64,000 nucleotides of DNA from Cyanidioschyzon merolae. Its lineage: Eukaryota. The stretch's first letter is position 1. Each line of letters begins with the position of its first letter. The notes under the pieces are model-generated. The model was not told the origin of the DNA. It searched no databases and saw nothing but the letters and a program-made list of their open reading frames with translations. Location: NCBI GenBank assembly GCA_000091205.1, contig AP006495.2; one strand, 5' to 3'. Below are positions 4,480 to 49,497 of the stretch, piece by piece. A program made the translations under genes and the position numbers.

Positions 4480-5224
4480 TCACCACCCAAGGAACCCCGT
4501 GGCTTCACAGCATTGGTAGCTTCCAGACTTGACCGAGGTGTAAAAGGAATGTGCGCACGGCAGACGGGGCGCTGACGCCGCACGAGTTCGCACACGAACG
4601 AGCGAGACGGAAATAGGAATTCGTTGCGCTGGAATGTGGATAAATGTTTTCGGTTTTCGCACTGCGACGCGGATGATCTTGAAGTATGTTGCAACATCTC
4701 ATGGAGTGTAGAAGAAGTTTATGGAGCTACCGGTTTTCCCGGTCGGTGGACCACGGTTCATGGTGGTTACGAACACGCGGTCGCTCACCGATACCTATGG
4801 CGGTATCAAATGGAACAGGACCACTTGACTAGCTCTGGCTTACACCGTATACCCATTTCAGAAAGACAGATAACAGCTGCTCTAACATGGGCGTGCATGC
4901 TGCACTTCTGGTGGCATCCAGATGGCATCAGCACAAGCCTTTATTGGCTTTTTCTCTGACTGGTTCCTTTTCGTGTTCTTTTTTGTCTCGAGTTTTAATT
5001 CGACGGTCAGGCCTGTCCATCCCGCTCCGTTTCCAAAAGTCGAATGATGTTCACAGCAGCGTTAGAGATCCGACTGCGCTGCCTCGGGCTGTTGTCGACG
5101 CAGTTCACGCAGAAGCCAGATTTGCGATCAACGCTTCGATAGCCATTGGTCATCTTCTGTGTGTACACAGCCTTGATGCATCCTTCGCAGCGGTGATAGT
5201 TGGCTCTAGTCAGATGTTCCTATA

Positions 5225-7748: not shown

Positions 7749-9050
7749 CTAATGCATCATCGCAGCAGCTTCTTGCATCACCAGTCTGGAGCCGGTGCCG
7801 CTGCCCACCACCACGGTGGAGGGGCCAGAGCTCGCCATCGGAGAGGCGACTGGACCCACTACCGTCGTTCCATCTGTAGAGGTCGTCGATCCACTCGAGG
7901 AAGATCCGTATGAGCTGCCGCTGCTGCCGGTAACGACGATGCCACCGCTGCTGCCGCTGCTGCCGCTGCTGCCGCTGCTGCCGGTAACGACGATGCCACC
8001 GCTGCTGCTGCTGCTGCTGCTGCTGCTTCCTGAAGACGGCTCCAGCTCAGTTTGAACCGGCTGCTGCTGGCCAGAGTTCTGGCTGTAAGGGTTGAACGGC
8101 TGCACCTGCTGCTTCGGGTAGTACTTCTTGTAATAACTCTTGTTGTAGTTGAACGGCCCAAAGACAGCAGTTGCGTTCCATCCGCTGGGAAAGTTGACCA
8201 CCGGATTCTTGTAGTAGCACCATGGAATATCCTGAGTCTGATACTTTTGCTGGAGGTACGGAGGCAGCAATATGGGATCGAAGCAGCAGTTACGCTCCAA
8301 GCACTGTTGCTCAGAAATGCCTGGGAAACCGCAGTTCTGGCGCTCCCGATAGGTGACGTTGCAGGTCATGAGCGGTTGATAGCAGAAGCCGTAGCTGTTG
8401 CCGAAGAAATTCACCTTCTGCTGCTTCTGCAGAGACTGACTGCTCGGGATAGAATCCTCATATGTCAGGTTCGGGTTCTGCTCCCAGCAGCAGCCCTGTG
8501 CCTCGCAATCCAGCTGGTTCATGTTATTCCAGCCGGAGTAGCATGGAACCTTGTAGTCGCCAACATTACAGCTCACATTGGGAAGTTGCTGCTGCGGTGG
8601 AGGCGAGTAGCCCACTGGAGCATAGCACCAGGGCCCGACCTCCGTCGGTGGAAGGGGATTCCAGCAGCCACCCTGCTGCAGACACTCTGCCGGAGTGATC
8701 TGCGGATAGCCGATCGCGACACGGTCGGCTGCGGAAATATTACAGATGGAGGTCGGCTCGTACGAGACGCAAACACCGTCTCCATTGTAGTTGAATCCCC
8801 AGTTCACCTGAGTCTGCCAGCAGCACTGGTAGTCGAAGCACTTCTGCTGGTCATTGCCAGCGTCACCACAGAGATAGATCGAGCAGGTTGTTCCAATATA
8901 GGTCGAGTTCAGGGAGCTCCACCGCTCCAGGTTGGAGTCCACCAGCATGGACGGCGCTGCGTTGACGCCGCCCATGGCGGCCACCATACACAGCAGCGCG
9001 AGCACTGCTGCTGCTGCCGCCGCTGAGATGAAAGAGAATAACTTACGCAT
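7749..9050 (-). CDS. Secreted multi-trefoil (P-domain) protein with a C-terminal Ser/Gly-rich mucin-like tail.
   Basis: 433-aa ORF. The N-terminus MRKLFSFISAAAAAAVLALLCMVAAMGGVNA is signal-peptide-like. Four Cys-rich modules are present; RERQNCGFPGISEQQCLERNCCFD...PWCYY fits the trefoil signature [KRH]-x2-C-x-[FYPSTV]-x3-[ST]-x3-C-x4-CC-[FYWH] exactly, and the others are CCW/GCW variants (CFDYQCCWQ, ECLQQGGCWNP, CEAQGCCWEQ). The tail SSGSSSSSSSSSGGIVVTGSSGSSGSS is encoded by GCT/CTG repeats at 7915-8035. Confidence 0.7.
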   Translation of the reverse strand: MRKLFSFISAAAAAAVLALLCMVAAMGGVNAAPSMLVDSNLERWSSLNSTYIGTTCSIYLCGDAGNDQQKCFDYQCCWQTQVNWGFNYNGDGVCVSYEPTSICNISAADRVAIGYPQITPAECLQQGGCWNPLPPTEVGPWCYAPVGYSPPPQQQLPNVSCNVGDYKVPCYSGWNNMNQLDCEAQGCCWEQNPNLTYEDSIPSSQSLQKQQKVNFFGNSYGFCYQPLMTCNVTYRERQNCGFPGISEQQCLERNCCFDPILLPPYLQQKYQTQDIPWCYYKNPVVNFPSGWNATAVFGPFNYNKSYYKKYYPKQQVQPFNPYSQNSGQQQPVQTELEPSSGSSSSSSSSSGGIVVTGSSGSSGSSGSSGGIVVTGSSGSSYGSSSSGSTTSTDGTTVVGPVASPMASSGPSTVVVGSGTGSRLVMQEAAAMMH

Positions 9051-12320: not shown

Positions 12321-13745
12321 CTAGGGTGCGCGGATGTGCACCAGGCCAGCTCGTATGAGCATGCGAACTTGGTCTAAAGTGCACCCACTCGCCTCCATGA
12401 GTTCACGAGTTCTTCGCCGATTCGACAGTGCCCCACCTGACGAAGCGTCAGCGACCATCTGCTTTGCAAAGGCGACTTGTGCCGCGCTCAGCGACACCGG
12501 CCTATAATCGCGATCGAGGACAAGTTCAGACGGGGCGCCGTACGCGCATTCGCTCCATTCGGGAATGCTGGCAGCGATTTCATCATCCGTGGGCTCTGTC
12601 GAGGGAAACGGGTCGCGCGCTAGGAAGAACTCAAAGTGCGTGATGCGCTCGGGATCGAGAAGTTCCACCAATCTCCACCGCTCCGCGTCGCTGAGCCCCT
12701 GAACAAGCTGACGTACCTCGGGATCGTTCCCCAGCAAGTGGTCTAGATCAAAGTTTCGAGCATTCGACCAGCCCAGGAATCGCAGACCGCTTTTCTCCGC
12801 CAACGCCAAGACGGACGGTACATCGAAGTCGTGTTCCAATGGATGGACATACATATCCGCGAATGTGGCATCGGAGCGGTTGTCGTGTGCCCATCGCTCA
12901 TTCTCTCGTTTCTTTAAGCGATTCTCGTCCGGAAGCGCCCTAAAGAGTGCCCGACCGAGGGCGACTCCCTTTTTATAATCCCCTTTGCTGCCGGTAGCCT
13001 CTTGGATCAGGGCAATCGCTGCCTGCATCCGACGAATTTCCCACCGACCTGCCTCGGCGTAGACGAAAACATGCAGGATGCCACCGGGGGCTAGTTTTCC
13101 CGCCAGCATCTGCAGCGCTCTGGCTGGGTCTGGTGTATGATGAATCACGCCGACACAATTGATCATGTCAAATCGACCGCTTATTTCTCCGTCCTCGAGA
13201 TCGAAAATGGACTTGCAGTACAGGCTGGTGCGATGCCGGGCATCGGGGACCGACAGCTCGAGGCGCTCACGTGCAGTCGCCAGGGCTGTCGGCGACAGGT
13301 CAAAAGCAACCACTTCTGCCTGCGGGTTCAAGTGAACCAGATACTCCGTGCCGCAGCCGGTTCCACAGCCGGCGTCCAGAATACGAACTTTCGTTGTCGC
13401 TGGAACGCGACCCTTGGCACAAAAAGCGTACGCCGTGGGGTAGTGCCAGCGCCAGTTATAGCCTGGTGGAGCCCCGCTCGTAGGCGGATCCGGCGGAAAC
13501 GGGTATGCGTTGTACAGCTTCTGGACAGCCTCTGTAGCGGAATCTAGCTTACGACCCGACTCGCGCTGCTCGAGCGAGGCTACAAGTGTCCAGACTCGAC
13601 TTGGGCGTTGGTGTACTCTGAAAGAAAGGCCTCGTCCGCCGTGAAGCAGCCTACGTAGTCTCGGCTGTGCGAGCGTTTTACCTGCAACAAAACTAGAAAC
13701 GCTCAAGAACGCAGTTGCCTGAGTCTTTTTCGTACCGGTATCCAT
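12321..13745 (-). CDS. Class I SAM-dependent methyltransferase.
   Basis: Glycine-rich SAM-binding motif I in VRILDAGCGTGCGTEYL, followed by the acidic motif II (VVAFDLS) and a conserved downstream fold. The ORF is 12321..13841; the start is placed at the ATG at 13745 (MDTGTKK), since there is no other Met before motif I. The first codons overlap the 3' tail of the adjacent Fanzor-like element. Confidence 0.65.
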   Translation of the reverse strand: MDTGTKKTQATAFLSVSSFVAGKTLAQPRLRRLLHGGRGLSFRVHQRPSRVWTLVASLEQRESGRKLDSATEAVQKLYNAYPFPPDPPTSGAPPGYNWRWHYPTAYAFCAKGRVPATTKVRILDAGCGTGCGTEYLVHLNPQAEVVAFDLSPTALATARERLELSVPDARHRTSLYCKSIFDLEDGEISGRFDMINCVGVIHHTPDPARALQMLAGKLAPGGILHVFVYAEAGRWEIRRMQAAIALIQEATGSKGDYKKGVALGRALFRALPDENRLKKRENERWAHDNRSDATFADMYVHPLEHDFDVPSVLALAEKSGLRFLGWSNARNFDLDHLLGNDPEVRQLVQGLSDAERWRLVELLDPERITHFEFFLARDPFPSTEPTDDEIAASIPEWSECAYGAPSELVLDRDYRPVSLSAAQVAFAKQMVADASSGGALSNRRRTRELMEASGCTLDQVRMLIRAGLVHIRAP

Positions 13746-15655
13746 CCAGGTTGAAACTCTCGCCTGTTGCGGCACAAAACAGCAGGCGTGGTTATCGGAA
13801 CAGAAGGATTTCACGACTAGAGGGTAAATGGATGCTGCCATGCTGACGCCTCACGGTCTTTTTGGGCCGGCCACCTGCTATCGACTTCATCTTCTTCCCG
13901 TAAAATTCCACACTGAGAGGCTGCTCCACAAAGTTGGCTCTCGTCAGCTCTTTGGGTCTCTTCTCCATTACGACACATCTCCGTATAGTGATGGCGGCAT
14001 GAAAGTCTCGGGTCACAGCCTCCATGCGTTTCTTGCCGCCGCTGGTTGTACTCACCAGTGCAGGGTGTCCTCGAACTCATGCCCTCTGTGGCATTTTCTG
14101 TTCCGCCAGCGCTCCGTACTTTTCGATATCCGCAGGGCTCCTGTGAAACTTTTCCATCTCGAACCTCTGAAGCGTACACCTCAGTTCGTGGTGCACATAC
14201 GATGTTCGGAACTCTTATGTATGTATTGTGAAAAAACGGTGTGCATACTCTTTGTACGCTCTTGTCGACGGAGCTGGTGCACATCCTTTTTTATGCGTCA
14301 AGCGCCCTGTTCCGAGTGCTATCACGAGTCGTTGACTCTTGTCCTCCTTGAGGGCGCTCAACTTATTGAACAAGTTGGCGAATGCACGCTGCTTCCCACA
14401 GTCCAAGTCGATACGCTGACGAGCGCACCGGCGCTTGGTGTACTCTTTCCACATCTCCTCGGAATGAGCAACGCGAATTTTCACGGACTCCTGAAAAGCT
14501 TGAAAGCTCGCACCTCGGCTCGTCACATTGCGGAACTCCTTCTTCCTGACATCGTACTCCAGACTGATCTCCCTCGTGATGCCGTAAAGGGCTCTGGAGC
14601 CAATTGTCACCAAGTGCGACTTGATGTTGCGTATGGGAACGACATTGAAGCGCTTCTCTAGTAGGGAAGCGTTCCGTTTCTCCGACTCTTCATTTGCTTC
14701 CACATCCTGCTCCATTGCGGCCTTGCGATCGAGTTGCCGGTTCAGGACCACAAAATAGCACAGCATCAGAGGATAACTTTTCTTAATCTCTGATACCTTT
14801 TCTGCTGGGTTGACCAGCCCCAAGACCGCCCGATGCTCTTAAATAGCCACACGGATCGCAGAAGCTTCATTCGTGCTTCTGCGTGATGTCTTCTTGTCGA
14901 CGAACTCGATCCCCTGTTCGTGCTGGGGATCGTTCATGATGCCATTGATGATGGCCCATGTTCCTTTGCGAGAGAGGCCTGGGTAGAGTGGAAGAATGGA
15001 GCGTATCATGAAACGTTTGAGGTTCACGATCATGTGGTTCTTCAGGCCCATGAGGTACTTGATTGCCCCTCATCCGTAAACGCACAAGTTACCCTTGTAT
15101 CGAGTACTGTTGAAGCGGAATTCGGGGTGATATTCGTGGCGGGCGTGCACTCGCTCATTTCTCCGCGAGGTTTCCCACGTGCTAACCTTCAGGTGGCTGA
15201 TGAAGCTCTAGTCGTAAAATTCTTCCGGAACCTCGACTGTTTTGATGGCCGTCACGTCGCGATACATCTCCCTCGCCAAATGCATTAGTCCTGACGACGC
15301 CTATGTAATACTCTTGGAGTACGAATCGACATGGTTTCTGATAGCGTCTCGCAGCTTTTGCTTGTACGGATTTTTGATATATTTAAGAAGACAGGCTTTC
15401 ACCACAGTCTCGTTGTACTGTGGTCTTTCTTGCAGCCATTGACGTCGGACCTCCTGCCTTCGCTTCTTCGTCTTCTCCAGTCCCTCTCTGCTTGGGACTG
15501 TTTTTCGTTTTTTTCCGCTAGCCGGCGACACGAATCCTCCAGGATCCTCCACTTGCTTCTAGATAAGTATCGTTTTTTATTTTTGAAAACGAACCCACTT
15601 CGAACGCTTCTCCTATAAACCACGAAAAAGCACTCGAATACACTAATGTGAGGGT
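13700..15655 (-). mobile_element. Fanzor/TnpB-like (OMEGA family) transposable element, copy A, near full length (~1.9 kb).
   Basis: The 5' end (plus-strand 15575-15650) is homologous to the 5' ends of copies C, D and the 10 kb palindrome. The 3' tail (ccggtacgaaaaagactcagg...) is a diverged version of the tail shared by B, C and D. The internal ORFs encode an NLS-rich N-terminus and the RuvC-III motif. Confidence 0.5.
13792..15552 (-). pseudogene. Fanzor/TnpB-like RuvC nuclease gene, apparently frameshifted.
   Basis: Colinear minus-strand ORFs: 15301..15552 (MEDPGGFVSPASGKKRKTVPSREGLEKTKKRRQEVRRQ, basic NLS-like), then 14839..15051, 14215..14823 and 13792..14055 (GGKKRMEAVTRDFHAAITIRRC, the D-x-N-A-A-x-N-I RuvC-III signature). 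The 150 bp before the motif is split over three frames, including a Cys/His-containing stretch (RKCHRGHEF) in a third frame. This indicates frameshifts or unrecognised introns. Confidence 0.5.
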
Positions 15656-16663
15656 TGGCACCCTACCGAACTGAAAGACTATACTTTGCTACAACTCGAA
15701 CGCTAGTACATCTTGTACAGCAGAACACCACGCTAATGATCAGGATCGCGTTTTCCTCCATAGGCGGCATTTGCGTCATCTCTCATGCCTGCCAGATATC
15801 GACGTGCATATATCGACGACGCTATAGAAAGAAGGAAAAGAAAAGAACCACGTACTAGCAACTCAATTAGAAATTCTTTCTTTCTGTGCGGTATACATTA
15901 GAAAGGGGAGCAAGCTTTCCGAACACTCGAACGTTTATCTTCTAGGCGGAAGGTTTCTCGAGCCTGACGAGTCTGCCGCGCTCGTGTTTCATGCTCCTCC
16001 TGGTGGCGGGTGCTGTACTGAGCTCCGAGCAGCTGTCCGTAACGCAGGTTATTCTGGGACTTGGAGCCGGTAAGCGGCATCTGGATATCGCCCTAGTCGC
16101 GGTGACCTCTTTGTATATCGCTTCGCGCTGTCGCAGGCCGTACGCTTTTCTACACAGTTTGCTGCCTCCGAGAATGATAGTGCATCCCGAATCCGTATTG
16201 AATGAAGCACGACTCGAGCCTTGACTCTCGGTGGTGTGGCAACGCCTTCTGTCTCTATGCTGCATCCGCACCTGCGGTATGGGTGCCATTGCGGTTGCTC
16301 ACGGCAGGCTCGTCGGTCGATACAACGTTTGAAACGACCACTATATCCGAGAAGAAGTATGACTCATGGAACTTGGTAGCAGGGTGTGTTACAAGCGATG
16401 CTTCATGGCGCTAATGTCAAGCGTACACTCGGCAAAAAACACTGGCCTGTCAACGTTCTATCAATGAAAAATAAAAATCATTCGGTTGTTCGACCTGCGC
16501 AATTCTGCCCGTCTACTCGCGCCCAGCACCAAGCAGCAGCGCACACCACACGCACCTGCTTCGAGCGAGACTTTTACCAGGCCAAAACACTGGTCCGTTC
16601 TCTATGGCGAGTTTATTGGAGCGTGAAGAATTAGAGTGATAGAGACGTGGTACCCGAGCTCAG

Positions 16664-17110
16664 ATGGCGCTCAGTGGCCGTGCCGAGGAAGGTCGCACCT
16701 TGATGGCAGTGGACTTGGCGCTTCAGCCAGCGCCGGCGTTGCCAAAGGATGGCGGCGCTGAGGTTACTGCAGCGATCGACCTATGCGCAGAGCAACTGCA
16801 GCTCATGATTCAGTGTTTACTCGAGCGTGAAGCGGACGAGTTTTGTCAAGAGTCGTTGCTGCTCTTCGCCGCTTGCAAAGAACGAAGGGACAACGCACTG
16901 CGAACCAGGATCCTGGGGTACGACAGGCGGCACGGTGTACAGGTATCAACGCTTGAGCGAGAGTCTCAGGAGGTGGCACAAGCGCTCGATCGGGAGAAAC
17001 AAAGACAAGGAGAGAGGGAAACGCTCGGCGTAGTCCACCTCACGTCGCGTCTGCAGGACTTGAGGGCGCGCATCAAGGCGCTCACCAACGGCACCGAATC
17101 AACGGACTGA
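16664..17110 (+). CDS. Hypothetical small coiled-coil protein.
   Basis: 148-aa ORF of non-repetitive composition with no recognisable domain. It lies in a gap between confident genes. Confidence 0.3.
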   Translation: MALSGRAEEGRTLMAVDLALQPAPALPKDGGAEVTAAIDLCAEQLQLMIQCLLEREADEFCQESLLLFAACKERRDNALRTRILGYDRRHGVQVSTLERESQEVAQALDREKQRQGERETLGVVHLTSRLQDLRARIKALTNGTESTD

Positions 17111-17681: not shown

Positions 17682-18446
17682 TTAAACATCTGAAGCGTAG
17701 CACTGTCGACAGTCGACCGGGGGCTCTGTATAATCAATGCCAGCATGCTGCATCCGAACGGCCATATCGAAAAGATAATCCAAGCACTCGGTCACTGTCT
17801 TGGCCTCGACATCGTCACGACCCCAAGCGTAGAGACCGTGACGTCGAACCAGAACTGCCGGTGATTTCGGATAGCGCTGCATGGCTTTGGCCATATCCCC
17901 TGCCAGCTCCTCTTCGTGCGCCGTATTGTCGATCACGGGAATAACCAGCGTGTCATGATACCCGTGCAAAGGGATCCCTTTTATCATTTCCAAATGGGTA
18001 ATTCTGAACTCCGCGTCTGCTTGCGTACGGGGCAGCAGCGTTACCATAACAGCGGCTGGAGAGTGCGTGTGAATGCACGCACCAGCATCCCGCAGTCGAA
18101 AAGCGTTGTAAAATAGAGGGCAACACTGCGAGACCCGTAGCGACGGCGTACTCACGGGACGCTGGAGGATCTCCCCCGTCTCCAGGTCGAGCACAAAGAT
18201 GTCTTGACGTCGAATTCGCTCCTTTTGTACTCCACTCGGCGCCATGTAGACGCAGCGACCCTGTCGCACGGAGATGCCCCCGCCAGTGCCAGTCACCCAG
18301 CCGAGCTGGTAAAACTGCCTACAGAGCCCAGTTATGACGGAAACCGGGTCCTCGTGACCTTCTTCATACATTCGGTCAAGAGGGCGCTCCGTGTCAACGT
18401 GACGATCGTCGCAGCAGCAGCAGCCCGCGCCGTTCGCCAGCTCCAT
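17682..18446 (-). CDS. mtnB: Methylthioribulose-1-phosphate dehydratase (MtnB/APIP, class II aldolase/adducin fold).
   Basis: CRQFYQLGWVTGTGGGISVRQG...YMAPSGVQKERI...DIFVLD...ACIHTHS...VIPVIDNTAHEEEL match conserved MtnB blocks. 254 aa. Confidence 0.75.
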   Translation of the reverse strand: MELANGAGCCCCDDRHVDTERPLDRMYEEGHEDPVSVITGLCRQFYQLGWVTGTGGGISVRQGRCVYMAPSGVQKERIRRQDIFVLDLETGEILQRPVSTPSLRVSQCCPLFYNAFRLRDAGACIHTHSPAAVMVTLLPRTQADAEFRITHLEMIKGIPLHGYHDTLVIPVIDNTAHEEELAGDMAKAMQRYPKSPAVLVRRHGLYAWGRDDVEAKTVTECLDYLFDMAVRMQHAGIDYTEPPVDCRQCYASDV

Positions 18447-25795: not shown

Positions 25796-26794
25796 TGCGA
25801 CGACTCACGCCGGTGTTCTCTCCAAGGTAAAGGCCCTGGGAGCGCCCTCGTCCCGAAGACCAACTGGACCCGCACCGCTGAACGCACAAGTCGCCGCCTG
25901 AAGAAGGTACCTTGAGGGGCTGCTTTCGAATATCGAGACTGCTTTTGGAATGCGGTGCACAGCAGCTCTATCCAAAGCGGCAACTTTCCACAGTGCCAGC
26001 AGTTCAAGTGTATGTACAGCGCCGTCGACTAAAACAGGCACGGAACGGCGAACGCCCACAGTTCAAATACCGCTTCGGAAATGCAGCTTGGAATCAATTT
26101 TTCGTTGACGAAACGATTACGTTGATCTTGGATCCCAGACTGAACGATGAATTTTGGTATCCTGGTATGCGTTCATCGAGCTATACCCTACCTTCAAGTT
26201 CCATTACTTATACGTTGTTCCGGATGTACCGACTGTTTTGTACGTTCCACTGTGTACCAAGCCCGCCGTGAGCACCCCCAACAGCGATTATACTGCTGGT
26301 GCATATGTATGACGGAGACAGAGCGGCTTTGCCATTCCACTGCGGGCGTCGGATGGAGGAATGCTATGCCTGACACGGAATCAGGGCTAATGGTCATTCT
26401 GGGAACCTGAAATATGCGCAGAGAAACTTACTGCCTGCGGCAGCGCCAAGCGATATGCTAGGAGATAACTGCAACATGGGCGATGCCCAGACGCAGCCTA
26501 CCCGCTCCTAGTCCCAGAATAACCCGCGTTGCGGACGAGTCGCTCAGGTCTCATTACAACATCCGCCACTGGAGGGGACGCGAAGCACGGGCCTGGTAGA
26601 CAAGTTCGGCTCGCGGGACCTTCCGCCTGGGAGATAAGCTTTCGAGAATACGGAAAATTTTTCCCTTTCAAAGGTTACCATGAAGGTGGCACCAGAATGC
26701 TATCGAGTTGCTCGTTAATGGATATTTTCTGTTCTTTTTACACATTTGCAGCTAGTACGTCACGTGTTTCTGTTGTTACCACCACGGATACTTC

Positions 26795-27079: not shown

Positions 27080-27482
27080 CCTCAGGGCATTAGCACGTGC
27101 GTTCATTTAAAGAAATAAAAAATCCAAGCGATGAGCTGCGCTGTACACTGCAGAGGGTCGAGATGCAGAAGGGCCGGCAGAGCGCTCAGTGGATTGAAAA
27201 GTACGCAACGCTGACAGAGCAGAAACTGGCGCAAAGGGCATGAGTTTTAGCAATCCTTGCAATAATGCGTTCTAGTAGAGGCAAGAAGCGCATGGAGTTC
27301 GTGAACCGAACCTTGAACGCCGCCATCAATATCAGACGATTTGCGATGCTGGGGAGAGAAAGCCCAGGAGTTGACGCGAGCCAACGTTGTGGAGCAGCCT
27401 CTCAGGTTCAAAGTATACAAGGAAAATCTATAACCAGTAACATGCGGCCGGTCAAAAAAGGCTAGGAGGCGTCTGTGAGTGG
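27080..27482 (+). mobile_element. Fanzor-like family, copy B: short internally deleted derivative (~0.4 kb).
   Basis: 5' end tagcacgtgcgttca..taaagaaataaaaaatcca is homologous to the D/A/C 5' ends. ORF 27265..27465 encodes GKKRMEFVNRTLNAAINIRR (RuvC-III motif). 3' tail gcagcctctcagg...ccggtcaaaaaaggctaggaggcgtctgtgagtgg. Confidence 0.55.
27385..27482 (+). ncRNA. Candidate omega-RNA scaffold: the conserved 3' tail of copy B.
   Basis: Homologous to 58818-58934 (D) and 48958-49043 (C, minus strand). Contains the conserved hairpin agcct-ctc-aggct/aggtt and the terminal GGCGTCTGTGAGTGG block. Sequence diverges immediately downstream. Confidence 0.3.
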
Positions 27483-27823
27483 TTTCCAGGGTACCCTCTC
27501 GAGCCGATGCCCTCTGCGATATGGCAACGCCGACCTCTGTCCGTGCCATGACCGCACCGGCACTACAGGCGCTATTCCGGACATTCAGGCCATGCACTAC
27601 GCCCGAGGTAGAACGTCTGAAGCGGCCAGTATATCCGGGAAGGGTTAGAAGTTATGGAACTTGGGAGTAGAGCGCGCAATGATGGATGCTTCACTGTGCC
27701 CTGATATCGAGCGCCCAGTCGCAGAACGCTGGTCTAGGTCCAGGTTTCATGGAATTCAAGAATGCAACATTTCACGCCGACTCTGTCGGAAACCGCGCCC
27801 GCGCAATACCTCTTCGATAGCTT

Positions 27824-33700: not shown

Positions 33701-35639
33701 CACGCACATGGAGCGGCGTTCTCCGCATCATCTGTTTTAAGTGTCTGCTGAAACTTGCCGAAATTTGGAGAATATCATACGCAGAGCGCGACTTCTCTTT
33801 TGTGAATCTTCAGCGGCGAGTCCACAGCGCCTTGGAGGTGCACGATATTTGCGGATGATAACCCGGTCTCAATGTTTACCGATCGCCATGTCGTTGCTGC
33901 GAGTGATGCACCCACGAAATGAAAAACTGTCTATGAAGATTAGAGGACCCTGTAGAGGATATCCGTAGGCAAATGTAGGCATCGAGTTCGGTTTGCATGA
34001 GGGCCCTGGAGCGCGCCGCACCTATTGCTTCCTATTCTCGGACTTGATGTCGACGTGCATGAACTGCAAGTGGTGTTCGCAGGAGGCGTCCATTTGCTCC
34101 ATCGGCATCCCAGATACATGCCGCCGTTCCGAGTTCGATACTACGGAGAAGTGATGGGCGTCGACCTCTGCGTTAATCTATTTCGCTTGTTGCAAGTCGT
34201 CTCGCGCGATGTGATAACGAAACTGATGGATTCAGGGCGGTAGGATTATCACCTATCTGTCGTAGACTTGGCGACGAACTGGCATGCAAAGCGACTACTG
34301 CGTGTAACTCGGACACTTCGAACGCGTAAGCGAGGTTTCGGAATCTCTGGGCGGCACTGGCGATCAACCGTACTCCGCCTGACTCGTGTTCTGTACCTCT
34401 CCGGAACAGCATTTCCAGCTTTGTTTCAGTGGCGGCGTTTTCCGGCGATCCGGATCGCGCAATGAGCCGTATGCCGCAGAAAGCCATCCGAGCATGATAC
34501 GATTTTGAACAATAGAGGATCGATGCATTTGTCCGCATCCCACCGAAAGCGCGGAGAATGTCGGTGATCAGGCAAGGATAAACGTGCCTGACACAGGGAG
34601 AAACGCTCTCGGCGAACACTTGTTGGAGTGTTCTCTCTATCTGCCGGACTTGATGCAAGAAAGGAAGTACACGTCCCGCGAGACGATCCATGCGCGCCGC
34701 AGACCGAGGCACAGCGGTCTCGTGAGCGTCTGGCTCAAAGCGCATTCGCCACCCTACCCCAGTCACATTGTAAAGCGTGCAACTGGCGACGTATTGAATT
34801 GGGCAGCATACGGAATGATCGACGCTTTCTCTCTCTATCTCCCTCAAGCATCCATAGAGTCCAGAGAGGTATCCTGCTGAGCGATGACAACGATCATCGC
34901 GCCGTAGTTGTTGCAGTTGCGACGAATACGCCCGCGAGATGCTAAGCCTCATCACTGGTTTCGGGCACGACGCAAACGCTGCGGTGAGCTTGCGGCGCGT
35001 GCACCTCGGCTCTCTCCGAGCGCCGCTGTAACCTATACGTTGTGCCGTCCAAACAAATACGTACGGAGCCCAGCTGCCGATGCCTGTCCACATAGTTGCC
35101 GCTCACCTGAATGCCATCGAAATAGCTCGGAGCACCCGAGCTCAAGTCGAGAGTCGCGCTTGTGTTATGACGCTCGAACCTAGGTACCGCGGGCGCCTGT
35201 AAACCTTGCTTACCCGGGAAACCTCTCATAGACGCTATCGCACAAAAGTGCTTTCAGTCTTCGAACATCTGAGTATTGGCGGAAACCAACGCGCTGTCTC
35301 CTTGGTCCGTCATGTCTCCGTTTCCACGACAGCCTTGATGAGACGAACCCACGATCCATGCGCCATGCGCCGTGAGGAAGTACGCTGAAGCGCGGGCAGG
35401 CTCTTTGAAAGTCACCTGTGCACGCACATACGCACAAAGGCACACAGGCACAGTAGCGTGGATACTGATGCCGCGCGCTTCCGCCGCTATCGATAAGGAG
35501 CGTAGCAGGCGAGTCCTTCCCCCAGTGTCGATGCATGTACGGTGTGGGCTGGTGGTGCTTTCGATGCACAGGGAGCGGCGTGCGCGGAGCCGCTCCAGAA
35601 GCACGTGAGGTAGGCTCGGCACTAGGAATGCCGCTGGAG

Positions 35640-48216: not shown

Positions 48217-48957
48217 TCACTAGTTTCTGAAAACTGGTACTCCGATAAGGTGAAGTAAGATTGTCGAAGCAGTAACTGTTCATTGCAGGCTTTGCTGCGC
48301 CGCCTCCAGCGCCGATCTGCAACGCTTGTCCAGTGATTTAGAAATGGACGGTCAGCGCGATTTGCTTTGTGTTTCATAGACGCTTACCTTGATCGGGGAT
48401 CCCAGATTGCGGTACGGATGGTACCATTCAGAGATGCGTCCAGCATTTCCATTCCAAGTTCCATAACCCATACTTCTTCTTTGATGTGCTGGTGGTTTTT
48501 TACGTTCTGTCGTGCGCCGAGTGCCTGCCCTGATCGTCCGTGATAGCGCCTGTGCCGCCAGTTTGGATGCATCACAGCGACAGAACCACTTTGCCATACC
48601 GCAGAGGGCGTCGGCTCGGGGCGCGGTTCACTCGCCACAGAATCGAGCCTCAAATTCGATTCGTGCTCAGCCGGTTTGTGGATGCAGACTTGCCTTCGGT
48701 GCACTGCGCGTTGGAGAAATTTGGCTGTTAGGATGTATCCTGGGGGCCGCTTCTCTCTTGCGCGATCGTGTGTGAAATTCGTGTGCGGCTCGCAACACGG
48801 ACTTGTGCTTGGCACCCACCAGTGGGTAGGTGCCCAAAGCGCTGGGCCGACCCGCAATGAACGGTAGTTCAGCGAGAGGCGTTGCGCAAAGGCATGCTCG
48901 CAGCGTCGGCACGCTCAACGCAGCGAAAACGTACCGCTCCAATGAGGTATATGAAGA

Positions 48958-49497
48958 CCCATCAGCAGACGCCTGCCAGCCTTTTCCGACCAGCCGCATG
49001 CTATCGATTTCGGCTTCTCCCTATACATTTCGAGCCTGAGAGGCTACCCCACAGAGGGCGTGCGCGCCAGCTCCCCGGGGCTCCTCTCCGGCGCAGCACA
49101 TCTCCTGATGCTCGTTGCAGCATGAAAGTCTCGGTTCACGAATTCCATTCGTTTATTGCCTCCGTTTGCACTCACCAATGCAAGGAGCACTCGAACTCGT
49201 GCCCTCTGCGCCAATACAACCTCGTCATCGTTCCGTCTCGCAAACACCCTTGCTCGCCTATCTCGCCTTTTCTTCGTCTTCTTCTTCATCGTCGAATGCT
49301 CTACTTTGCTCGATGGTTGGCAAGAGGATAATTTTTTCGTTTGCTTCAAGCATCCGGAAATAACGGCCATCAAGGATCACCCATTTCCACATCCATACCT
49401 TTCCCTTGAATTTTTCGTTTTTTGAAAATGAACGCACTTCGAACGCGTCTGCTATGAGCCTCGACAGAGCATTTGCTGACGCTCGCCCGCTGCGGCT
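48958..49497 (-). mobile_element. Fanzor-like family, copy C: short internally deleted derivative (~0.54 kb).
   Basis: ORF 49044..49373 fuses the N-terminal homology KTKKRRDRRARVFARRNDDEVV (cf. copy A KTKKRRQEVRRQWLQERPQYNETVV) to NKRMEFVNRDFHAATSIRRC (RuvC-III). Plus-strand 49414-49497 is the reverse complement of the family 5' end. The 3' tail (minus strand) tgtggggtagcctctcaggctcg...gaaaaggctggcaggcgtctgctgatggg is ~85% identical to copy D. Confidence 0.55.

Follow-up and report, generated by a model that had tools for sequence, protein, structure and literature searches.

Fanzor1 nucleases carry an omega-RNA from the transposon end, recognize a short adjacent motif, and use their RuvC site to cleave double-stranded DNA that matches the guide (PMC10432273, PMC10530073, PMC11423790). 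In SpuFz1 the metal-binding residues are D383, N385, E541, and D606 (PMC10432273). A relocated RuvC-II glutamate has been described for Fanzors, and N-terminal nuclear localization signals (NLSs) have been shown in many of them (PMC10530073). CMe-1A is one Fanzor1 family listed for Cyanidioschyzon merolae, with ∼150 copies that are ∼80% identical to a consensus of ∼3 kb; the consensus has no terminal inverted repeats, target-site duplications were undetermined, some copies are intact, and its 5′ 635 bp share 95% identity with TE-N2_CMe, an element in its own right (Bao & Jurka 2013, Mobile DNA 4:12, PMC3627910). Fanzors in Rhodophyta were also found by later surveys (PMC10530073). Here we describe copy A, a locus in a 64,000-nucleotide stretch (the window, which holds three further related loci) of chromosome 13 of C. 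merolae 10D. Judged by profile searches and by a structure model of a relative, copy A is a real relative of the Fanzor1/TnpB superfamily of elements in a eukaryotic chromosome, as an earlier note on this DNA had proposed. It is very probably an inserted DNA transposon that carried a Fanzor1 gene and is now dead; the family is most likely CMe-1A, described in C. merolae in 2013.

Comparison with CMe-1A showed several points of likeness. First, the host is the same, the element is multi-copy (four copies in 64 kb here), and there are no terminal inverted repeats; none was present in the copy A region, nor was any long inverted repeat found there. Second, CMe-1A copies are ∼80% identical to their consensus, compared to 77 to 80% for the copy A core against the 2.6-kb consensus core built here. 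Third, the ∼3 kb of CMe-1A with its 635-bp 5′ module corresponds to a 0.58-kb leader plus the 2.6-kb core, and the module also stands alone, the leader being found as separate pieces in either orientation. The leader probably corresponds to the TE-N2_CMe-like module at the CMe-1A 5′ end, as matched by the published description. Finally, both encode a Fanzor1 protein and no transposase; scans of the ten largest window open reading frames (ORFs), together with the precomputed Pfam annotation of the contig that holds the best related copy, L001, showed no transposase or recombinase domain. Nothing in the comparison contradicted CMe-1A, although copy A has a 675-bp internal deletion and lacks the ∼90-nucleotide (nt) 3′ module carried by most metagenome copies.

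Copy A is intergenic, flanked by a methyltransferase gene on one side and a small DUF7803 gene on the other, and consists of a 5′ leader, a 5′ untranslated stretch, and a pseudo-gene, with the 3′ end cut short. Similarity to more than 80 related loci sets in near 16376-16411 and ends sharply at 13835-13845; the span 13700-15655 given in the earlier note was thus too short, with the element extending upstream to ∼16412. The GC content of copy A is 0.51 compared to 0.56 to 0.57 in the flanks. Lesions were scored against a consensus ORF of 759 codons. The features, in window coordinates, are as follows.

13835..16412, minus strand: copy A, the whole recognizable Fanzor1 transposon relic, most likely of CMe-1A type (similarity to 80+ related loci)
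15830..16412, minus strand: 5′ leader of ∼0.58 kb, directly upstream of the core in many loci
13795..15567, minus strand: Fanzor1 pseudo-gene in one reading frame, from alignment to relatives
15559..15564, minus strand: lost start codon, ATG to ATC (Ile), followed by TAG; consensus MKKQVDDPGG, copy A I*KQVEDPGG
15442..15516, minus strand: N-terminal basic clusters GKKRKT ... KTKKRRQEVRR, NLS-like (KKRK and KKRR runs)
15301..15303, minus strand: in-frame TAG (AAG, Lys, in the aligned consensus)
15208..15210, minus strand: in-frame TAG (AAG, Lys, in the aligned consensus)
15070..15072, minus strand: in-frame TGA (TAC, Tyr, in the aligned consensus)
14839..14841, minus strand: in-frame TAA (CAA, Gln, in the aligned consensus)
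14526..14533, minus strand: junction of an in-frame deletion of ∼675 bp (225 codons; residues 327-551 of the near-intact relative P0002), from aligned relatives
14200..14217, minus strand: RuvC-II remnant *EFRTS, Glu kept, preceding codon TAA (CAA in related strains)
14077..14079, minus strand: in-frame TGA (AAA, Lys, in the aligned consensus)
13975..14013, minus strand: RuvC-III motif TRDFHAAITIRRC, Asp kept, two conserved Asn changed to His and Thr

The colinear minus-strand coding pieces noticed earlier are present at 13795-15567, although the last ∼15 codons (13795-13840) are flanking DNA past the element end, and the strings GKKRKT, KTKKRRQEVRR, and GGKKRMEAVTRDFHAAITIRRC all occur on the minus strand. 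However, the pieces belong to one frame. The 150 bp before the RuvC-III motif, which had been read as spread over three frames, align residue by residue with relatives in a single frame and are broken by one TGA only (14079-14077). The frameshifts supposed there do not exist: alignment to relatives showed none over 1.76 kb, and the lesions are instead the lost ATG and a total of seven nonsense codons in one frame, including the TAG right after the lost ATG. A 12-nt in-frame deletion is additionally present. The RuvC-III core reads TRDFHAAITI at 14013-13984. The string RKCHRGHEF, put forward as a zinc-finger remnant, turned out to be an out-of-frame reading of the stretch encoding ALAEQKMPQRA*VRGH, which aligns with PLTEEQMERRAKVRGL in relatives; the same out-of-frame string is RKWHRGHEF in a 99.3%-identical strain.

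Nor is the locus near full length: the 3′ end is gone, and so are about 225 codons, RuvC-I among them. The 675-bp deletion takes part of the WED domain, the 25-residue tandem repeats, and the RuvC-I strand with its DPGNTN motif. In the AlphaFold model of P0002, the deleted segment comprises the disordered repeats, the first three RuvC strands with the catalytic Asp, the helices that come next, and a β-hairpin that would be the WED part, as assigned from its position. At the other end, the match stops at consensus position 2524 of 2615, so the last ∼90 nt are absent from copy A, and with them the stop codon of the element. Because the start is lost, seven nonsense codons are present, RuvC-I is deleted, and the 3′ end is ∼90 nt short, copy A is incapable of RNA-guided cutting. 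The loss of RuvC-I is an inactivation of this copy, not a reason to exclude it from the Fanzor1 family.

The copy A relic also sits at the same place in two metagenome contigs whose identity to the window is 99.3% over 6.2 kb. Both share its deletion and its 3′ end, together with six of the seven stops; at 14217 they still have CAA. Since related strains carry the same relic, copy A is an insertion that has become fixed and is slowly decaying, rather than a source copy. It is an old relic that is still decaying, and the earlier idea of a decaying master copy does not fit the absence of RuvC-I and of the 3′ end and the fixation of the same relic in related strains.

The Fanzor1 identity of the family was examined by both sequence and structure. 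The copy A pseudo-protein matched 37 metagenome proteins (best E=4e-192, 59% identity over 94% of the length), and 288 related stretches were found in metagenome contigs; the longer relatives carry DPGNTN, DEFRTS, and NRDFNAAINIRRC. An exhaustive profile search gave 1714 cluster representatives at E<=1e-3, many of them 600 to 700 residues long and 30 to 40% identical. In a broad alignment of 57 sequences, three sites were invariant or nearly so, namely, the DPG Asp, the DEFRT Glu, and the R-D-x-N-A-x-N core. A second homologue search with this alignment returned almost nothing outside the close family already found; the one addition was a diverged protein. When the broad profile was compared to PDB, it matched the Fanzor1 proteins of Parasitella parasitica (E=5e-21), Spizellomyces punctatus (E=3e-13), and Guillardia theta (E=4e-9), and the DPG, DEFRTS, and NRD motifs were all aligned in the three matches. 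As the alignment is read here, the DPG, DEFRTS, and NRD motifs of the family appear to lie opposite the active-site Asp, Glu, and Asp of SpuFz1 (D383, E541, and D606). The RuvC-I Asp is invariant in the family (D484 of P0002, in DPGNTN) and is deleted in copy A, and the family Glu, in a DE(F/Y)xTS motif, fits the relocated RuvC-II glutamate of Fanzors.

The structure model of the near-intact relative P0002 agreed with the profile. With the broad alignment, AlphaFold gave a pLDDT of 82 and a pTM of 0.80, compared to a pLDDT of only 38 with the narrow alignment, and residues 374-469 were the sole long disordered part. The fold shown is that of P0002, whose residues 327-551 copy A lacks. In a Foldseek search of this model against PDB, the top seven matches were Fanzor1 chains (E=4e-16 to 1e-13, TM 0.72 on SpuFz1), with Cas12 variants, Fanzor2, and ISDra2 TnpB below them. 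Likeness to Fanzor1 in both profile and structure was therefore found, and D-x-N-A-A-x-N-I is a true RuvC-III motif that, by the PDB Fanzor1 profile match and the model on SpuFz1, lies in a real RuvC fold; both of the points on which the earlier note had said its proposal could fail came out for Fanzor.

Intact members are ∼760 residues long and have a K/R-rich N-terminal tail, REC and WED domains, 25-residue tandem repeats, and a split RuvC (DPGNTN, DEFRTS, and NRDFNAAINI). The N-terminal basic clusters pointed out in the earlier note were confirmed in copy A, and the family consensus is K/R rich in the same region, as in many Fanzors. Among ∼80 related loci, L001 alone combines a frame that is close to complete with the three catalytic motifs, and even here the ATG has been lost and the end comes early. 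In full-length members, tandem 75-bp (25-residue) repeats lie inside the ORF just before the RuvC-I strand (L001 11149-11449). The repeat segment varies from 437 to 830 bp among copies in steps of ∼75 bp and is disordered in the AlphaFold model.

Compared to the solved Fanzor1 proteins of SpuFz1 (PDB 8GKH, 9CEU-9CEZ), Parasitella, and Guillardia, the family has the same fold (TM 0.72 on SpuFz1) and WED-REC-RuvC-NUC order. The active-site Asp, Glu, and Asp also align, with the Glu in DE(F/Y)xTS, whereas sequence identity is only 13 to 15%. Unlike SpuFz1, the C. merolae family has, immediately ahead of RuvC-I, 2 to 7 tandem repeats of 25 residues that are disordered. The four NUC zinc-finger Cys appear not to be conserved in it, and no terminal inverted repeats were found, whereas SpuFz1 elements have them. 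For SpuFz1 the activity, the omega-RNA, and the adjacent motif are known, whereas the C. merolae family is read from sequence and a model. With ISDra2 TnpB (PDB 8H1J, IS200/IS605), the family shares the RuvC core and the RuvC-III motif and presumably the same logic, in which a nuclease is guided by RNA from the 3′ end of the element. However, the match is much weaker (Foldseek E=0.06, ∼270 aligned columns). In addition, the family protein is about twice as long as TnpB with a eukaryote-type basic N terminus, and, unlike bacterial TnpB, the family has no OrfB_IS605 Pfam match, and no TnpA partner was seen in the window ORFs and contig annotation scanned. Of the two Pfam models suggested as checks in the earlier note, PF01385 was matched neither by copy A at E<=1, nor by 17 relatives at E<=0.1, nor by the 57-member set at E<=0.01. 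PF07282 (the TnpB/Cas12f TNB domain) gave sub-threshold matches only, in 13 of the 57 broad-family members and in none of the C. merolae-type members. The structural comparison proposed there, made on P0002, placed Fanzor1 first and TnpB lower.

A ∼90-nt module past the stop codon is conserved in most relatives (∼85 of 86 metagenome copies) and ends in a long imperfect G-U-rich hairpin, which occurs in two sequence variants, TTCGAC...TCGAA and TTTTTC...GAAAGG. With RIBOSUM scoring, a long-range stem was predicted between the ORF end (CAGTAGT..GGTGGC) and GCCACTACTG in the 3′ module; without it, RNAalifold found no consensus structure in the alignment of the 3′ region. In the predicted structure 86% of cells were paired compared to 39 to 59% when the partners were slid. 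Compensatory changes were few, and their observed count was reached by 26 of 500 shuffles. Weak covariation is expected, because most copies are decaying relics. By analogy with described Fanzors, transcription of the 3′ end of an intact element would produce an omega-RNA, which the 3′ module would supply; the protein of that element would bind this RNA and then cut guide-matching DNA next to a short adjacent motif. Such cutting might help the element to persist or spread.

All four window copies end at consensus positions 2516-2524, ∼20 nt before the consensus stop, compared to ∼2600 for nearly all metagenome copies. Their ends (13835-13845, 27475, 48965, and 58926) all lack the 3′ hairpin module. 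Near the C terminus, the four window copies have K(S/R)IAGG in common, and the others have EAVVGG. There may thus be two types of element that differ in their 3′ ends and hence in their guide-RNA arrangements, and the window copies may be an older subfamily with its own 3′ end.

Several observations weigh against the assignment of copy A to a dead Fanzor1 element of the CMe-1A family. First, copy A alone had no relevant sequence match in Pfam or in PDB (phmmer), and a narrow profile of 36 family sequences had no Fanzor or TnpB match in PDB (hmmsearch). In Pfam, the stop-masked copy A gave only a chance match to DUF4845, and seven close relatives gave nothing relevant. The link to Fanzor1 therefore needs the broad profile or the structure model. 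Second, the canonical CCCC zinc finger of SpuFz1 and TnpB appears not to be conserved in the C. merolae family. The NUC zinc-finger region reads TSYTHHELGC...EKCQ...RGLLALVSTT, with at most two of the four Cys positions kept, and RGLLWC is kept in the broader clade. Third, the ends of the element are approximate only, no target-site duplication or adjacent motif was recognizable at them, and the consensus was built from metagenome copies of related algae, not from strain 10D. Fourth, the name CMe-1A, most likely correct, comes from the organism, the copy structure, and the divergence, compared by the published description. Finally, structure support for an omega-RNA is weak, and the 3′ module is a candidate omega-RNA scaffold.

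Other explanations were also considered. The one that survived best concerns the internal deletion. Only one other locus has the copy A deletion, with the same 675-bp in-frame junction and the same canonical ATG loss (L002, L091, and L092, where P0001 and its alleles are encoded). Quartet sites place copy A with L002 (50 compared to 31 and 17), the branch ratios of nonsynonymous to synonymous change (dN/dS) are 0.48 and 0.44, respectively, the P0001-type alleles have open frames of 562 to 602 codons, and copy A itself is free of frameshifts. These two members might come from a lineage that lost RuvC-I by one deletion and kept its frame open for long. If true, this would point to a nuclease-independent job for the protein, for example, omega-RNA-guided DNA binding or the element's own propagation. 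We consider this, and the separate hint of two element types in the 3′ ends of the window copies, improbable.

A stronger form, in which selection kept a RuvC-I-less lineage for a nuclease-independent role, such as RNA-guided DNA binding or help in transposition, and copy A is a recently inactivated member, is very unlikely. The present P0001 alleles look neutral: of the codon changes between them 9 are nonsynonymous and 1 is synonymous, the catalytic Glu is replaced by Met or Lys, and they differ by a frameshift near the C terminus. Full-length copies also show a dN/dS of ∼0.4, so the values may only mirror the history of active source copies, and the outgroup consensus is not a true ancestor. 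Moreover, only two members were found, and copy A is plainly dead. L002 was also considered as an orthologue of copy A and rejected, the flanks being unrelated. The deletion-type ORF (L002, L091 6001-7803, L092 3988-5790) represents one conserved locus beside an ABC-transporter gene, found in several metagenomes.

The possibility of a functional Fanzor gene at copy A, with unrecognized short introns that account for the apparent defects, was left open in the earlier note and has still less to recommend it. Fanzor genes in other eukaryotes have acquired introns (PMC10530073), and the lack of any frameshift over 1.76 kb would suit such a gene. However, each of the seven stops replaces one sense codon within gapless blocks aligned in frame with relatives. 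Because the stops sit inside aligned blocks, conserved residues would be lost if the stops were spliced out. Copy A also has no start codon, its genomic sequence holds no RuvC-I, and one of the stops is a simple CAA/TAA polymorphism between strains. The C. merolae genome has ∼27 introns in all. We consider this explanation highly improbable and retain the dead insertion.

The weakest alternative, a bacterial TnpB/IS605-type insertion, a contamination, or an unrelated repeat with a D-x-N-A-A-x-N-I match, can draw on the occurrence of the RuvC-III motif in TnpB, Fanzor, and Cas12 alike and on Pfam TNB matches that are only sub-threshold (13 of 57 members), but has a negligible chance of being correct, as the flanking genes are C. 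merolae nuclear genes, related strains hold the same insertion, eukaryotic Fanzor1 is best in sequence and structure, well ahead of TnpB, PF01385 is without a match in copy A, the 17 relatives, and the 57-member set, neither the ten largest window ORFs that were scanned nor the Pfam annotation of the L001 contig showed a TnpA-like gene, and the motif lies, as modeled, within a full RuvC fold.

The three further loci with the RuvC-III signature listed in the earlier note were recovered, VNRTLNAAINIRR near 27316 (plus strand), VNRDFHAATSIRRC near 49130 (minus strand), and VTRHFNDAIGIRRC near 58761 (plus strand), and its conclusion that they form a multi-copy family, not a chance match, holds. 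The four window loci were joined by tblastn at E=1e-11 to 1e-19, and the motif pattern, which was written after the four copies had been viewed, occurred 4 times in the window compared to 0 in 50 shuffles. The pieces of copies B, C, and D are as follows.

26260..26679, plus strand: 5′ leader piece of copy B, 71% identical to the copy A leader
27131..27475, plus strand: C-terminal RuvC-II/III fragment of copy B with VNRTLNAAINIRR, catalytic Asp changed to Thr
27498..27721, minus strand: leader-like piece, inverted, directly after copy B
48454..48842, plus strand: leader-like piece adjoining the 3′ end of copy C, inverted relative to copy C
48965..49206, minus strand: C-terminal fragment of copy C with VNRDFHAATSIRRC
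49333-49455, minus strand: small N-terminal piece of copy C
58436-58578, plus strand: small N-terminal piece of copy D
58739-58926, plus strand: C-terminal fragment of copy D with VTRHFNDAIGIRRC, catalytic Asp changed to His

The ∼2-kb interior is absent from copy B. The inverted leader pieces after copies B and C raised the question of long terminal inverted repeats, which were rejected: there is no long inverted repeat in the copy A region, the leader and the 3′ module are not complementary, and leaders lie upstream of other copies in both orientations. In two metagenome loci (L018 ∼1310-1600 and L007 ∼4590-4880), a leader begins right after the 3′ hairpin of another copy. The arrangement of the pieces suggests that the leader (TE-N2-like) and Fanzor1 repeats insert side by side or have a common target.

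The chromosomal setting is that of ordinary nuclear genes. Six single-exon window ORFs were identical residue for residue to annotated C. merolae 10D proteins with CMM locus tags on an 866,983-bp record, chromosome 13, including the following three.

12324-13841, minus strand: methyltransferase gene (BAM81057), identical protein
17685-18446: methylthioribulose-1-phosphate dehydratase (BAM81059), identical protein
34176-35093: CMM221C, identical protein

Further window ORFs have ordinary eukaryotic Pfam domains, namely, a mitochondrial carrier, a PI3/PI4 kinase, and a 6-phosphogluconate dehydrogenase. Upstream of copy A and divergent to the methyltransferase gene is an ORF of 148 residues (16664-17110, plus strand), probably the annotated gene between BAM81057 and BAM81059; the DUF7803 match is carried by its orthologue in contig L081. 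The annotated start codon of BAM81057 (13839-13841, minus-strand ATG) coincides exactly with the end of the copy A similarity. A weak likeness among the window copies suggests that the first ∼10 codons of the annotated ORF may be transposon derived, and the true start may lie further downstream. In a metagenome protein, P0031, the gene caller fused a Fanzor C-terminal fragment to an unrelated ubiE/COQ5-type methyltransferase. The methyltransferase part lies directly downstream in the same orientation and resembles the layout of copy A and its neighbor, a resemblance that is probably a coincidence. Elsewhere in the window, there is a 5S ribosomal RNA gene (62308-62428, plus strand; Rfam RF00001, 94 bits, full length) and a 433-residue ORF with three trefoil (P-type) domains (7749-9050, minus strand). 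No Rfam match was found inside the copy A element.

The Fanzor1 family of copy A is already published, and the high interest that the earlier note attached to the locus is not borne out, as the family was described in C. merolae in 2013 (PMC3627910). With C. merolae Fanzor1 elements catalogued in 2013, Fanzors shown to be RNA-guided nucleases in 2023, and copy A dead, the locus has little discovery value. What the analysis does establish is that the 2.6-kb stretch directly upstream of the methyltransferase gene is transposon debris, and it corrects the idea of a frameshifted or near-intact locus. For a Fanzor1 family from a thermo-acidophilic alga, a consensus protein and a candidate 3′ RNA module are now available, along with a structure model of good confidence. 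Such a family could interest those who seek heat- or acid-tolerant genome editors.

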